The notes: generated by a model not told the origin, from the sequence alone. Positions 26,284 to 40,762 are shown, counted from the first letter of the stretch. The stretch: 64,000 nucleotides of DNA from Candidatus Rokuibacteriota bacterium (GCA_016184365.1 JACPCW010000110.1:28611-92610), one strand, 5' to 3'. Numbers and translations are program-made.

Positions 26284-26359
26284 GGGCAGGTAGCTCAGTT
26301 GGTAGAGCACAGGACTGAAAATCCTGGTGTCGGGGGTTCAATCCCCTCCCTGCCCACCA
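26284..26359 (+). tRNA. tRNA-Phe (GAA)
   Basis: Acceptor GGGCAGG/CCTGCCC, D-arm GCTCAGTTGGTAGAGC, anticodon loop cTGAAAa, T-arm GGGGGTTCAATCCCCTC, CCA end. 76 nt. Confidence 0.9.
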
Positions 26360-26401
26360 TTTTTTCGCGTGGCTAGAGCGCGCCTCCGGTTCTCGCCTCG
26401 G

Positions 26402-26440
26402 CCGACTGGCCGTGTCGTCAGCGGAAAACGACACGGCCAG
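26402..26440 (+). terminator. tRNA-proximal hairpin (15-bp perfect stem)
   Basis: GACTGGCCGTGTCGT-cagcggaaa-ACGACACGGCCAGTC. A TTTTTT tract directly follows the tRNA. Confidence 0.45.
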
Positions 26441-26836
26441 TCGTCGATGTTCCAGCAGCGCGCTCAACCTCGGACCCGCGCAAGCCTGAAAATCGAAGGT
26501 ACTCGCTCGAGTCTCGTATTTGCCTGGACAGGACGCGCACAGGAATTGAGGTCCTGGTTACGCTTCGTCTTTTCCGAGGATTGTGACGAACGTGGCCGGG
26601 CTCACGATGGGGACGCTCCGAGACCGTCTGATGGCCGGCACGGCGCCGTCCCGGGACGCGTACGCCGGCGGCAGCGACCGCCTCAAGGAATTCGACGACG
26701 TCAGGCCTCGGTCATCCACGTCGTTCTCTGATCCACCGCTCGTAGAAGGTCTTGCCCTGGGCGACCCCAGCGCTGTGGCGATCTTTGGACATTGTCGTCA
26801 TTCCGGCCCGCGCCTGTGTCGCCGCTATGTCCCTCA

Positions 26837-26934
26837 GCCACTCCTCGAAGCGCGGCTCGCTGACGGCGAGACCTTCGAGGAGATCGCCCCGGTAGAGCGT
26901 CGCCGCCTCGTCGAGCGCCTCGGGCGTTGCTGCC
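26837..26934. repeat. 98-bp direct repeat (SARP BTAD-domain fragment), copy B
   Basis: Near-identical to 27523-27620. Minus strand encodes AATPEALDEAATLYRGDLLEGLAVSEPRFEEWL, then diverges. Confidence 0.7.
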
Positions 26935-26946
26935 GGCGGCCGGCGC

Positions 26947-27215
26947 ATGACCGAGTGCGCCGCCCGCCTGGTCGACGAGGTGCTGCCGCGGGTACCCGTG
27001 CGCCAGTGGGTGCTGACCCTACCGTGCCGGCTGCGCTCTCTGCTGGCGTGGGATCACGGGCTGGCGCGCGCCGTGCTCGGCGTAGCTGTGCGCGTGTTGC
27101 TCTGCTTCCAGCGTCACCGCGCCCGCCGCTACGGCGTTCGCGACGGGCGATCGGGCTCGGTGACGGTCATCCAGCGCTTCGGGGGCGGACTCAATCTGAA
27201 TGTCCACTTATGCGC
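26947..27215 (+). pseudogene. IS91-family (HUH rolling-circle) transposase remnant
   Basis: ..VPVRQWVLTLPCRLR.. and ..VTVIQRFGGGLNLNVHL.. are hallmark IS91 transposase blocks. Only ~90 aa remain, internally shortened. Confidence 0.5.
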
Positions 27216-27288
27216 TGGGGTTCGGCGTCGCATACGTCCGGGTGCGGACACGCCTGCCCGGCCGGCATCTGGCGGCGGCGGCGGCATC

Positions 27289-27876
27289 CTACACCGTCAT
27301 CTTGCCGTCGGTGGCGTTCGTGACCGGCTGATCGCGCTCGCGCGCGTGCTGCCGATCGTCGTGCGCAGCGTCGAGGATGGCCTCGGCCAGATCGAGCGCG
27401 CCCTCGAGGAGGCGGCAACGACCTGCGGCGCCGGATGGCGGCGTCGGTCGGTCCGGCGCGCGTGGGATGCGCGAGGAGCCTCGCCAGCGCTTCGAGGACG
27501 AGCTCGCGGAGGCGCTCGCGCTCGGCGAGCAGCCACTCCTCGAAGCGCGGCTCGCTGACGGCGAGACCTTCGAGGAGATCGCCCCGGTAGAGCGTCGCCG
27601 CCTCGTCGAGCGCCTCGGGCGTTGCTGCACCCGGTCGGCGACGAGGATGTCGGCGTTGCGGAGCGCTCGGAGGGCATGGCGCAGGCTGTCGCGTGCCTGC
27701 GTCGTGCCGGCGTCAACCCACAGCAAGGCAGCGAGCTTGTCCCGGGGATGGCGCTGGCCGGGGTTGAGGGCGAGGTACGCGAGCAGCGCCTGGGCCTTGG
27801 CGGGCAAGGCGAGAGCGGCTCCGGCCGGGAGCCGGAGCTCGAAGCCGCCCAGCAGGTCGAGGCGGAGGCGCTCCAT
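27289..27876 (-). pseudogene. SARP-family regulator fragment (partial tandem duplicate, frameshifted)
   Basis: MERLRLDLLGGFELRLPAGAALALPAKAQALLAYLALNPGQRHPRDKLAALLW.. (wHTH) then a frameshift into the 98-bp repeat (copy A 27523-27620). Upstream region (27880-27990) also resembles the intact gene's promoter (ggaactataga box). Confidence 0.6.
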
Positions 27877-28002
27877 GGCGACCGGCCCGTGTCATGACGG
27901 GCCGCGGGAACTATAGACCGGGAGCGACGGCGTGCGTTCCCCGCATTTTCGGCCCGGGCGGGGCCTCGGGACGACGGCGGCCCCCGAGCTCAGGTCTCCG
28001 CG

Positions 28003-38468: not shown

Positions 38469-38758
38469 GGCGTATGGTCGGACGATTCGGCGGCGATGAT
38501 CGCGAGCAGGTCTGCCCCGAAACGCCCATCCAGCCGGACCGGCACACGGCTTCGGAGAATCTCCAATGCCTGCGAAGCCGTGCGCCCGCGCAAGGGCGGC
38601 GCCGACATGAGGCAGACGTCCTTGCCACGCCGGTGGATGAGGAACTGCGAGCCGCCCTCCACCTCGTCCAGGAGGCGCGCGAACGACCGGCTCGCCTGCG
38701 TCGCCGACAGCCGACCGGCTCGGCGCTTCGGGCGTCGGTGGTCTGATTTCTTCGTCAT
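38456..38758 (-). CDS. Phd/YefM-type antitoxin
   Basis: ..LSATQASRSFARLLDEVEGGSQFLIHRRGKDVCLMS... Confidence 0.65.
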   Translation of the reverse strand: MTKKSDHRRPKRRAGRLSATQASRSFARLLDEVEGGSQFLIHRRGKDVCLMSAPPLRGRTASQALEILRSRVPVRLDGRFGADLLAIIAAESSDHTPWDS

Positions 38759-38871
38759 GAATCTGATTCTAGGGCACGACGGCCGAGGGCACCAGCAGCG
38801 CCTCGCAGACCACCGCCGACGCCATCCTCGGCCGCCTCGGCGGCCTGGACACCGCCAACCTGGACGCGTCC

Positions 38872-39305
38872 GTGTCCTCGTGCGCCTCGCAGGCGACCGC
38901 AGACGCCATTCTCCGGCGGGTCAGCGGCCTCACCACCGCGAACCTGGACATCGCGGTCTCGTCGCGCGCCTCGCAGGCCAGCGTCGACGCGCTGGCGACC
39001 AGGCTCCAGGCGCTCGGCCTGGACGGGCTCGGCGCGCACCTGGACCTGCTCCTGCGCGCGAAGATCGAGGTGGCGCTGGCGAGCGGCGACGCCCGGGTCG
39101 TCCTCTTCTACGCGCCGGCCAGCGCGGGGGGCACCTGGAGACGGTCCGGGCGATCGTGGCCGACGCCGTCCAGATGGCCCGCCAGTCCGGCGTCGACGTG
39201 GGCAAGGCGGAGCGCAGCCTCGCCGGCGGTGATCTCGCGTACGCCGCCGGACGGTACGTGGAGGCGTATGACCGGTTCCGGAGGGCCTACCAGGAGCTCG
39301 ACTAG
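38872..39305 (+). CDS. repeat-containing hypothetical protein with frameshift at a G6 run (~39125)
   Basis: Tandem ~28-aa repeats (ASQ.TADAIL.R..GL.TANLD..VSS). Reading frame shifts at gcGGGGGGcacc into ..HLETVRAIVADAVQMARQSGVDVGKAE..YQELD*. Confidence 0.35.
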
Positions 39306-39401
39306 CGCCGCTCCGACGCGCCCCGCGCGTCCGGCCCACCGTAGTACCCGGTGGGCCGGGCGCCGGCGGCGCCCGATGCCGGACAGCACGGAAGGGTCCA
39401 C

Positions 39402-39597
39402 ATGAGCGACGCCGTGAAGCTCGCCGTCGGCCTGACGTACGCGCGATCGGTGATGGCCACAGACGACCTCACCCCGGCGCACCTGCGTGGCGACCCGATC
39501 CGGGTCCTGTCGACGCCCGACATGATCCGGCTCATCGACCAGACGGCGATCGAGGCATCAAATGCGCGACAGCTGGCACATCCTGGCCGCGACACGC
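39402..39597 (+). pseudogene. hotdog-fold thioesterase 5' fragment
   Basis: MSDAVKLAVGLTYARSVMATDDLTPAHLRGDPIRVLSTPDMIRLIDQTAIEA resembles a FlK/PaaI-like N-terminus. Truncated at repeat copy 2. Confidence 0.35.
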
Positions 39598-39775
39598 GCA
39601 GTGCGTCCTACCAGATGACTTCGACGAGTCCCGAACGGCGGATATCGGAATCGCGCGACAGTAGCGGCAGGTTCAAATGGCGCGCCGCTGCACAGATCAG
39701 GGCGTCAAATGGATCGCGATTCGGACGGTGCGCGTCGGCGTCATAGATCTGCTCGGGAGTCAGGTCGAACGGTTG
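39598..39775. repeat. 172-bp direct repeat copy 2 (3' end of intact PIN-toxin gene)
   Basis: See 35990-36166. Confidence 0.75.
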
Positions 39776-40009
39776 ATACGCCGGACTGCTGAAGAGGTCG
39801 GCGCAGAATTCGCCGAACGACCGCTGCAGGTCGACCCGATTCGCCGACGCGAGCAGCGAGCACTCCCACAGCACCGCGACGGGGACGTAGACGACCGCGG
39901 CCCGACGTTCCGCCGCCTCGAACACCGCGGCGGCGCGTCGTCCGAGTCGGCGACTCGCGGCAGCGTGAAACAGCAAGGGATGCGTGTCGGTGACGGCCGC
40001 TTCAACCAC
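39608..40009 (-). CDS. PIN-domain toxin
   Basis: GTG start overlaps the antitoxin stop (GTGGTTGA). ..VTDTHPLLFHAA.. and a C-terminal ..DPFDALICAAARHLNLPLLSRDSDI... Confidence 0.7.
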   Translation of the reverse strand: MVEAAVTDTHPLLFHAAASRRLGRRAAAVFEAAERRAAVVYVPVAVLWECSLLASANRVDLQRSFGEFCADLFSSPAYQPFDLTPEQIYDADAHRPNRDPFDALICAAARHLNLPLLSRDSDIRRSGLVEVIW

Positions 40010-40298
40010 GCGCCGTCTTTCGCTTCCGCGCGGGCTCGATGCGGGGCCCGCGGCCGGTCCGGAACAGCGCGCGGACCAGCGCATCTGCGCGCGCCAGTGA
40101 CGGATCGCCGCTCACGATGCGAATCGTCCCCTTCACGGATCGACGGGGCGCATCGGGGGCTCGGATTCCGGCGCGTGCGTCGGCGATAAGCCGGTCGAGC
40201 GTTTCGCTGACGCTCCGATGCCGGGCCGCGCGGCTGCGCCCTCGGAGCCACAGGAGGTTGTCGTCGCGAAGGGTGACGGAAATCGCCTGCTTCGGCAT
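40002..40298 (-). CDS. ribbon-helix-helix-type antitoxin
   Basis: MPKQAISVTLRDDNLLWLRGRS..SVSETLDRLIADARA. Confidence 0.5.
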   Translation of the reverse strand: MPKQAISVTLRDDNLLWLRGRSRAARHRSVSETLDRLIADARAGIRAPDAPRRSVKGTIRIVSGDPSLARADALVRALFRTGRGPRIEPARKRKTARG

Positions 40299-40711
40299 AT
40301 ACGATATTCATACGATAACCTGACGCCCTCGTCAATCCACGCCACGGTCGAAGCCCCGGCGGCGACTGAGGCGATCCCGGCGGCCCTCGCGGTGTCGGCA
40401 GACTTGACGGACGGGCGCCACCGTTCGCCACCTCGCGGGGCATCGGCGACGTTGCGACGATCGGGACGCTGAGCGCCGGCCGGGTGCGCCGGGCCCTGTT
40501 CGCTCGCGACGTCTGGCGATTGCGCCGTGAACGACCGCCTTTGTACCCTCCGTTGCTGCCGCAGCGATCTCGTCCATGACTGGCCGTACCACTGGCCGTG
40601 TTCCCAGCGGTGCGGGCGCGTACCGGCGCGTAGAGCAGATCGCGGAACTCCTTGAAATCACATACAGGCGGTACCCGCGCGTACCCGCCGGAAACACCCA
40701 GCACCGCACTG

Positions 40712-40762
40712 AAAATCCTGGTGTCCACCATTCACCCCGTCCTGCCCGCCATTTTTCGCGCA
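40712..40762 (+). repeat. degenerate duplicate of tRNA-Phe 3' half (attR-like island boundary)
   Basis: ACTGAAAATCCTGGTGTC matches 18/18, then ..TTCA-CCCC-GTCCTGCCCgCCATTTTTCGCG parallels the T-arm, acceptor 3' strand and post-tRNA flank of 26311-26370. Confidence 0.5.

Follow-up and report, generated by a model that had tools for sequence, protein, structure and literature searches.

A 64,000-nucleotide stretch of an assembly from an uncultured soil bacterium, Candidatus Rokuibacteriota (GCA_016184365.1, JACPCW010000110.1:28611–92610; hereafter the window) carries an intact tRNA-Phe gene and, some 14 kb downstream, a segment that resembles the 3′ part of that gene. How did this segment come to lie there, and what is the DNA between the gene and its copy? 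The preliminary description of the locus, made from the sequence alone, proposed an accessory island integrated at tRNA-Phe. Our analysis supports this reading. Judging from sequence comparison, the interval is best filed as an old, immobilised and rearranged genomic island of the degenerate tRNA-gene type. It is probably the fossil of at least one integrative element that entered the tRNA-Phe gene by site-specific recombination into the part running from the anticodon loop to the 3′ end. The 14 kb need not be the product of a single event.

A decayed copy of tRNA-Phe

ARAGORN finds a single tRNA gene in the window, tRNA-Phe(GAA) on the plus strand (26284–26359; Rfam tRNA score 73.7 bits), and a promoter scan places a promoter-like site just 5′ of it (26242–26270). 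This intact gene, the putative integration target, marks the left end of the interval (the side of the left attachment site, attL). The right end (attR) is marked by a decayed direct copy on the same strand at 40700–40760, the candidate displaced fragment. Block searches and alignment delimit both. The left repeat copy consists of tRNA positions 23–76 plus TTTTTTCGCG (26306–26369, plus strand), and the collinear alignment from tRNA position 23 through CCA plus TTTTTCGCG corresponds to 40700–40760 on the right. Two blocks anchor the alignment. The 18-mer ACTGAAAATCCTGGTGTC, which spans the anticodon loop, the 3′ strand of the anticodon stem and the variable loop, is identical at 18 of 18 positions in the two copies and occurs only at 26314 and 40708, both on the plus strand, even when up to three mismatches are tolerated (chance expectation 0.01). 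The block formed by the acceptor 3′ strand, CCA and the T-run, CCTGCCCRCCATTTTT, is found only at 26349 and 40741, with 15/16 identity (0.00 expected). At the tRNA and at 40.7 kb the two blocks stand on the same strand, in the same order and with nearly the same spacing; the repeat, its orientation and its limits are direct observations. The preliminary description had placed the copy at 40712–40762, with an 18/18 core followed by patchy similarity, and this was confirmed, the real extent being slightly longer.

Could the motif at 40.7 kb nevertheless be a chance match or a common, unrelated repeat? Relative to tRNA-Phe it shows about 10 changes in 54 nt and two to three small indels, and its T-arm is degraded, with four of the five bases of the 5′ T-stem strand altered. 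Such poor conservation would suit a chance match, and the exact 18-nt run is not in itself remarkable: with 10 of 54 positions changed, 18 or more successive unchanged nucleotides have P ~0.12. The exact block beside the degraded T-arm needs no special explanation; neutral drift is sufficient to account for it. However, a coincidence would have to produce both blocks in one order, spacing and orientation. BLASTN with 40700–40756 matches the tRNA-Phe genes of 20 related genomes, taken as independent comparisons, at 78–83% identity with E-values down to 4e-8, and neither other copies of the motif nor any further tRNA-Phe fragment, internal or more distal, is present elsewhere in the 64 kb. The idea of a chance match or common repeat is effectively refuted.

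The two copies also differ in an informative manner. The 5′ half of the window tRNA is identical to that of the relatives' tRNA-Phe, and its T-stem carries a compensated pair change, GGGGG/CCCTC, in place of GGCGG/CCGTC, the version of 18 of the 20 relatives in which the tRNA extends to the T-arm. The decayed copy (26332–26352 compared with 40726–40744) keeps the relatives' version, CCCGTCC. This allele pattern is as expected if the 3′ half of the present gene had been supplied by an incoming element; since only two positions are diagnostic, we regard it as suggestive, not as proof.

Similarity between the two sites continues past the tRNA. Over the 51 nt that follow the T-run, positions 26370–26420 and 40761–40811 align in register and are 55% identical, compared with a background of 29% ± 7% (P ~4e-4). 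A perfect hairpin with a 15-bp stem and a 9-nt loop, read from the sequence, lies 45 nt after the tRNA (26404–26442, plus strand), and a sequence matching its 5′ arm at 14 of 16 positions is found at about 40795–40810, to the right of the decayed copy. The simplest attachment-site model does not require these ~50 nt of similarity, and they count against integration in its plainest form. They would follow if the element's own attachment region (attP) had derived from a related tRNA-Phe locus. Alternatively, they could point to a local duplication of tRNA-Phe together with its downstream flank, the duplicate having then lost its 5′ third and unrelated DNA having accrued between the copies through IS91-type or illegitimate recombination.

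The tRNA-Phe site in related genomes

Species-representative genomes were scanned with the aminotransferase encoded upstream of tRNA-Phe (24483–25811), which gave 80 loci. The best of these belong to metagenome-assembled genomes (MAGs) of Rokuibacteriota/Methylomirabilota, with 78–81% protein identity. As relatives we took the 21 loci having tRNA-Phe downstream of the aminotransferase, mostly in the order aminotransferase, PCuAC chaperone, tRNA-Phe. Window genes from 15.3 to 26.2 kb are syntenic in 12–14 of them, whereas for the genes between 26.4 and 41.5 kb no homolog was found downstream of tRNA-Phe in any relative. The same break is seen among the relatives themselves: 190 of 210 pairs can be aligned (≥500 nt) within the 4 kb that precede the tRNA, whereas downstream only one of 91 pairs can, and that pair shares an integrase gene. 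In addition, seven of the 21 related MAG contigs (L002, L003, L009, L018, L020, L021 and L022) end inside tRNA-Phe or within 165 nt after it, which suggests strain-level variation of the kind that breaks short-read assemblies. Because relatives align upstream but not downstream of it, and because contigs end there, tRNA-Phe sharply separates conserved from hypervariable DNA throughout this lineage. The gene is thereby marked as a recurrent site of integration or variability in Rokubacteria/Methylomirabilota genomes, and such a hot-spot would explain why many of their MAG contigs break exactly at this point.

Recombinases occur at the site itself. In L006 a 407-amino-acid tyrosine recombinase (Pfam Phage_integrase) is encoded on the opposite strand, 6 nt after tRNA-Phe, and homologs of this integrase occupy the same position directly after tRNA-Phe in L007 and L015. 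A fourth relative, L004, carries (13336–18301) a perfect 51-nt direct repeat, which begins with the anticodon loop's first base and runs through CCA to TTTTTT, 4.8 kb downstream of its tRNA-Phe. The segment bounded by this repeat has a GC content of 0.59–0.69 compared with 0.70–0.75 outside, encodes a TauD-type dioxygenase, an ADH-like open reading frame (ORF) and a 793-amino-acid RCC1-repeat protein, and has no integrase of its own. The window copy shares the 3′ limit of the L004 repeat, and its 5′ limit falls in the same anticodon arm, with weaker similarity reaching nine bases further.

Four other loci (L017, at about 12060–12110, L019, L023 and L029) share a block some 60–110 nt after tRNA-Phe with repeated TTGTGCCCA-type motifs. 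These motifs may be arm-type binding sites of one integrative-element family; no integrase was found in the parts of these contigs that were examined. About 3 kb downstream of tRNA-Phe, L017 also has an ORF (15246–16562) that by eye reads like DnaA, with a Walker-type motif and a similar C-terminal region.

How does the local duplication fare against this background? It would account for the in-register similarity past the tRNA, hairpin arm included, and it would sit comfortably with the absence of an integrase and with the IS91-family fragment and many illegitimate junctions inside the interval. It does not predict that the copy should start at the anticodon arm and that the strongest identity should end at the T-run, limits that recur in the L004 repeat, or that integrases should sit at this exact site in three relatives. 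Replacement of the 3′ half also fits better with the displaced copy bearing the T-stem allele typical of the lineage and the functional gene another one, and a duplication leaves it unexplained that synteny ends at the tRNA in all relatives. As the boundary shared with L004, the relatives' integrases and the allele pattern are not explained by it, we consider a duplication unlikely. Integration targeted to the tRNA, as the preliminary description had it, is supported by the limits of the L004 repeat, the integrases of L006, L007 and L015, the synteny break and the fragment-rich make-up of the interval.

Probable integration and decay, and known types of element

In the tRNA-island model as outlined for the Islander database, a tyrosine integrase recombines the tRNA gene with an attP site on the element that includes a duplicate of the tRNA's 3′ part; this duplicate restores a whole tRNA at the left end (attL), and the original 3′ part is displaced to attR at the far end of the insert (PMC4383910). 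Applied to the window, 26284–26359 would be the regenerated target gene and 40700–40760 the displaced original 3′ fragment, which would have drifted since. The integrase, whose usual place is immediately next to the tRNA (L006 being a case in point), would later have been lost. An IS91-family element would have inserted and then been truncated itself, the SARP regulator gene would have been partly duplicated twice, and several genes would have been cut into fragments. With its integrase gone and the region truncated, duplicated and fragmented, the island would now be immobile. We infer that the repeat arose by integration rather than by another process, that this integration is ancient, and, likewise, the number and order of the events just given. 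The label 'old, domesticated island' in the preliminary description thus stands in part: an island that has lost its integrase agrees with the data and its age is inferred, but 'decaying' suits it better than 'domesticated'.

Several observations weigh against this account. The first concerns the integrase. A tblastn search of the window with the L006 integrase returned nothing better than E>0.3, for a gene or a pseudogene, and neither the called genes nor 85 six-frame ORFs from the poorly coding parts gave a Pfam match to Phage_integrase; the earlier statement that no integrase remains is borne out by these searches. Second, composition does not single out the interval, as the window has about 70% GC and values of 0.67–0.75 are found both inside and outside it. 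The tetranucleotide signature dips weakly over 26–48 kb (r 0.93–0.97 versus 0.98–0.99 elsewhere), and so the dip extends past attR to about 48 kb. Third, no relative, the nearest having about 80% protein identity, joins tRNA-Phe to the right flank of the window, and no empty site was seen among them. The first gene of that flank, encoding a bicupin, has homologs in 76 metagenome loci (the best 65% identical), none of which has tRNA-Phe nearby. Look-ups of the exact aminotransferase protein and of the bicupin, the latter from two alternative starts, matched no database entry. Only L001 has a homolog of the molybdenum hydroxylase (Mo-hydroxylase) encoded by the next gene (49% identity), located 6.5 kb after its tRNA-Phe, which argues weakly for an ancestral right flank. 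Given this distance of the nearest genomes, a single event and the exact right end are read from the repeat and from gene integrity alone.

These points leave a refinement of the island reading live, namely that tRNA-Phe has been a composite hot-spot where several integrations accreted in tandem and were followed by deletion and rearrangement. The copy at 40.7 kb may then be the scar of the oldest or of one event, and the variable region may continue beyond it. The mosaic of unrelated fragments with sharp junctions is in keeping with such a history, as are the differing DNA downstream of tRNA-Phe in every relative, the 750 non-coding nucleotides to the right of attR, the tetranucleotide dip reaching ~48 kb, and right-flank genes that, apart from the 49% homolog in L001, are not syntenic with the surroundings of the relatives' tRNA-Phe. 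On the other hand, only one tRNA fragment is present in the 64 kb, the genes from 41.5 kb onwards are intact metabolic and transport genes without fragments or mobile-element genes, and the dip at 44–48 kb could stem from AT-skewed membrane-transporter genes without any foreign origin. We therefore treat a composite history as possible, although a good deal less probable than the island reading in its general form.

If the interval is an island, what kind of island is it? According to its description, Islander catalogues genomic islands integrated into tRNA and tmRNA genes by tyrosine integrases (PMC4383910). The window resembles these: an intact tRNA marks one end and a displaced 3′ direct repeat the other, and there are accessory cargo, toxin–antitoxin modules, insertion sequence (IS) debris, a synteny break, and integrases at the same site in sister genomes. 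It differs in its heavily decayed fragment, in showing no GC shift, in its uncultured Rokubacteria host and in having no integrase. Thus a target tRNA and a displaced fragment are present and an integrase is absent from the window, as expected for a remnant.

Cis-mobilisable elements (CIMEs) have lost the genes for integration and transfer and retain intact attL and attR (PMC6323972). Although the window island resembles them in being integrase-less and bounded by att-type repeats, its attR is degraded, with ~10 of 54 positions changed, and the 64 kb show neither a partner integrative and conjugative element (ICE) nor an integrase. With attR no longer intact, it is not a strict CIME; the integrase-less L004 island, bounded by a perfect 51-nt repeat, does fit the definition at the sequence level. 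Pfam families of relaxases, coupling proteins and type IV secretion components have no match among called genes or six-frame ORFs between 26.3 and 41.5 kb, and by the tests run the island is not an ICE or an integrative and mobilisable element, as far as its predicted genes go. One might also imagine that the integrase-less islands of the window, where the 18-nt anticodon-arm block has stayed exact, and of L004, with its perfect repeat, are still mobile in a CIME-like fashion, being excised or co-mobilised in trans by tRNA-Phe-specific integrases like those of L006, L007 and L015. We find this very doubtful; if true, tRNA-Phe would be a shared locus of cargo exchange in an uncultured phylum.

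Long att identity, from the anticodon loop to past the tRNA's 3′ end, is known in actinomycete integrative elements such as SLP1 and pSAM2. In the window, too, identity starts at the anticodon arm and similarity passes the end of the tRNA, but replication, transfer and integration genes are lacking and the flank similarity reaches only 55%. Islands at tRNA-Phe are classic in other phyla, the pheV and pheU islands of Enterobacteria and the Mesorhizobium symbiosis island being the standard examples. The titles and abstracts listed by a literature search on Rokubacteria and genomic islands did not deal with islands in this phylum. The window island is an addition from Rokubacteria to a well-known phenomenon and implies no new mechanism. 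Its practical value is modest. It offers a dated-looking example of island decay, in which the integrase is lost, IS91 debris and partly duplicated regulators accumulate, and VapBC modules are retained.

Contents and edges of the interval

The DNA enclosed by tRNA-Phe and its decayed copy amounts to 14.3 kb of accessory and partly broken genes. Seven or more of its genes are fragments; the genes on either flank are intact. On the right, from 41.5 kb, these encode the bicupin (41519–42484), the large subunit of the Mo-hydroxylase, TRAP and ABC transporters, an amidohydrolase, an ornithine cyclodeaminase and an acyl-CoA dehydrogenase, and no gene fragments or mobile-element genes were found among them. 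Because the fragment-rich interval contrasts with these intact flanks, a right edge at 40.76–41.5 kb is supported. The preliminary description had listed an IS91 remnant, regulator duplications, toxin–antitoxin modules, gene fragments and a pair of secreted proteins; all of them were verified.

Closest to the tRNA lies a cluster of regulator copies. The intact member is a 1077-amino-acid SARP/STAND regulator with Pfam domains Trans_reg_C, BTAD, AAA_16 and TPR (28003–31236, minus strand); an NCBI protein from a Candidatus Rokubacteria MAG is 100% identical to it. Next to it, also on the minus strand, is a truncated and frameshifted duplicate of its N-terminus (27194–27891; repeats D1 and D2), in which Pfam recognises Trans_reg_C and part of BTAD; it is 80–84% identical in nucleotides to 30736–31229 and 71% identical in amino acids over regulator residues 35–112. 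A third, short fragment (26742–26927, minus strand; repeat family D1) shows 88% amino acid identity to residues 136–168 (BLASTP E=2e-16) and a weak BTAD match. The family is very large, with more than 2900 database proteins at E≤1e-20, and among the 120 best matches listed, the source protein itself aside, the closest homologs have at most 54% identity; for this reason no recent relative of the island can be traced via the regulator. On a soil metagenome contig (L159, 2523–9101) members of the family also stand in tandem, the neighbourhood of one homolog shows nothing but tandem SARP paralogs, and partial tandem duplication, of the kind found in the window, looks habitual for the SARP/STAND family.

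Wedged between the two partial regulator copies is an internal 90-amino-acid fragment of an IS91-family transposase (Y2 HUH type), detected by tblastn on the plus strand (26941–27210) and breaking off at the HUH motif's first His. The fragment shows 58% identity to residues 75–164 of a 416-amino-acid Sandaracinus transposase (E=7e-24, tblastn), a homolog bearing Y2_Tnp and Zn_Tnp_IS91 domains, and it matches more than 5000 plasmid records annotated as transposase. Pfam alone missed it because it is located between those two domains. As in rolling-circle elements of the IS91 family, the fragment represents the region from the zinc domain to HUH. Unlike them, it retains just 90 residues out of about 416 and lacks both element ends and catalytic tyrosines, and it is a dead remnant. 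A complete IS91-family IS was not found: neither Y2_Tnp nor Zn_Tnp_IS91 has a Pfam match in the window, where only residues 75–164 are represented.

Divergently from the intact regulator run two genes for secreted proteins on the plus strand. The first product (31529–32902) is collagen-like, with G-X-Y repeats (Pfam Collagen) and an N-terminal hydrophobic leader visible in the translation. The second (32934–36011) is a 1025-amino-acid β-helix/Ig-like protein identified from Pfam and its translation (He_PIG, Big_9, cadherin-like). The regulator and this pair are flagged by their position as strain-specific accessory cargo rather than core genome. A prophage remnant was considered because of PHROG 'tail fibre' matches and rejected, since these fall only on the collagen G-X-Y repeat and the C-terminal domain alone gives none; no phage structural, packaging or lysis genes were found in the interval. 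Among viral contigs, the 31-nt pattern of the tRNA-Phe 3′ part had no matches, and the 18-mer occurred in 49 loci, among whose products there is no relative of the island proteins or of the L006 integrase. An anti-phage defence island was likewise rejected: for 10 island proteins, PADLOC reported only an 18.7-bit, P-loop-level match of the STAND regulator.

The last 24 nt of the second secreted-protein gene run into an orphan 177-nt segment (35988–36164, minus strand; repeat search) that is 97% identical to 39595–39771, the 3′ end of an intact PIN-toxin gene described below (VapC-2). The two copies form a direct repeat with sharp edges, bracketing 3.4 kb of fragments and the first VapBC module, and this repeat is of far more recent date than the island's other duplications. 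Within the bracketed DNA, Pfam identifies a C-terminal fragment of a LigXa-like oxygenase on the plus strand (36102–36482; LigXa_C profile positions 183–285 of 304) and an intact luciferase-like monooxygenase on the minus strand (36479–37792), with a GC content of 0.97 at third codon positions. A fragment of a second luciferase-like monooxygenase follows on the plus strand (37804–38094; Pfam and BLASTP); with just 39% identity to the adjacent enzyme, it did not arise by recent duplication of it.

Two toxin–antitoxin modules follow, both on the minus strand. VapBC-type module 1 (38052–38758; Pfam) consists of a PIN toxin (38052–38468) and a Phd/YefM-like antitoxin (38456–38758). Module 2 (39608–40298) has a PIN toxin (39608–40084; Pfam PIN E=2e-9) and an upstream 98-amino-acid ORF (40002–40298), called a putative antitoxin by position only, as it has no family or PDB match. 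The PIN proteins of the two modules are unrelated in sequence. Between the modules is a start-codon-less ORF fragment on the plus strand (38773–39060; TRF and translation), without Pfam or PHROG matches, in which 38798–38990 hold 2.3 copies of an 84-nt tandem repeat (TRF) encoding the 28-amino-acid unit ASQxTADAILxRLxGLxTANLDxxVSS. Two guesses from reading the sequence, a ribbon-helix-helix antitoxin at 40002–40298 and a thioesterase fragment at 39402–39594, found no support in Pfam or in PDB sequence searches. VapBC-type modules commonly stabilise islands. The parts of the interval that, by prediction, still look functional are the divergent unit of regulator and secreted proteins, the luciferase-like monooxygenase and the two VapBC modules.

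Right of attR, about 750 nt up to the bicupin gene (40761–41518) contain no convincing gene in the frame plot and gave no matches in a six-frame Pfam scan. A short ORF at 40921–41020 begins with MAETERTVRQSVSIPVGIAKRVRTLARTRK and by eye looks like the N-terminal part of a ribbon-helix-helix antitoxin, but neither Pfam nor PHROG gives a match for it. If real, it would mean that toxin–antitoxin debris extends past the 40.7-kb repeat. Over 40001–48000, the tetranucleotide correlation with the rest of the window stays low, at 0.93–0.96. This segment holds the bicupin, Mo-hydroxylase and TRAP transporter genes, and the dip at 44–48 kb overlaps membrane-transporter genes with strong AT skew. The dip over 40–48 kb may reflect membrane-protein composition or a second acquired block.

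Left of the tRNA, ORFs with high GC at third codon positions (2900–9200 and 12400–15300; for example 5470–7275 and 9172–10587, both on the minus strand) have no homolog in the syntenic relatives. The first 3 kb of the window match the relatives L014–L022, and 15–26 kb match L001–L013 and L025. These patchy matches suggest further rearrangement or variable patches on the left side of the tRNA as well.

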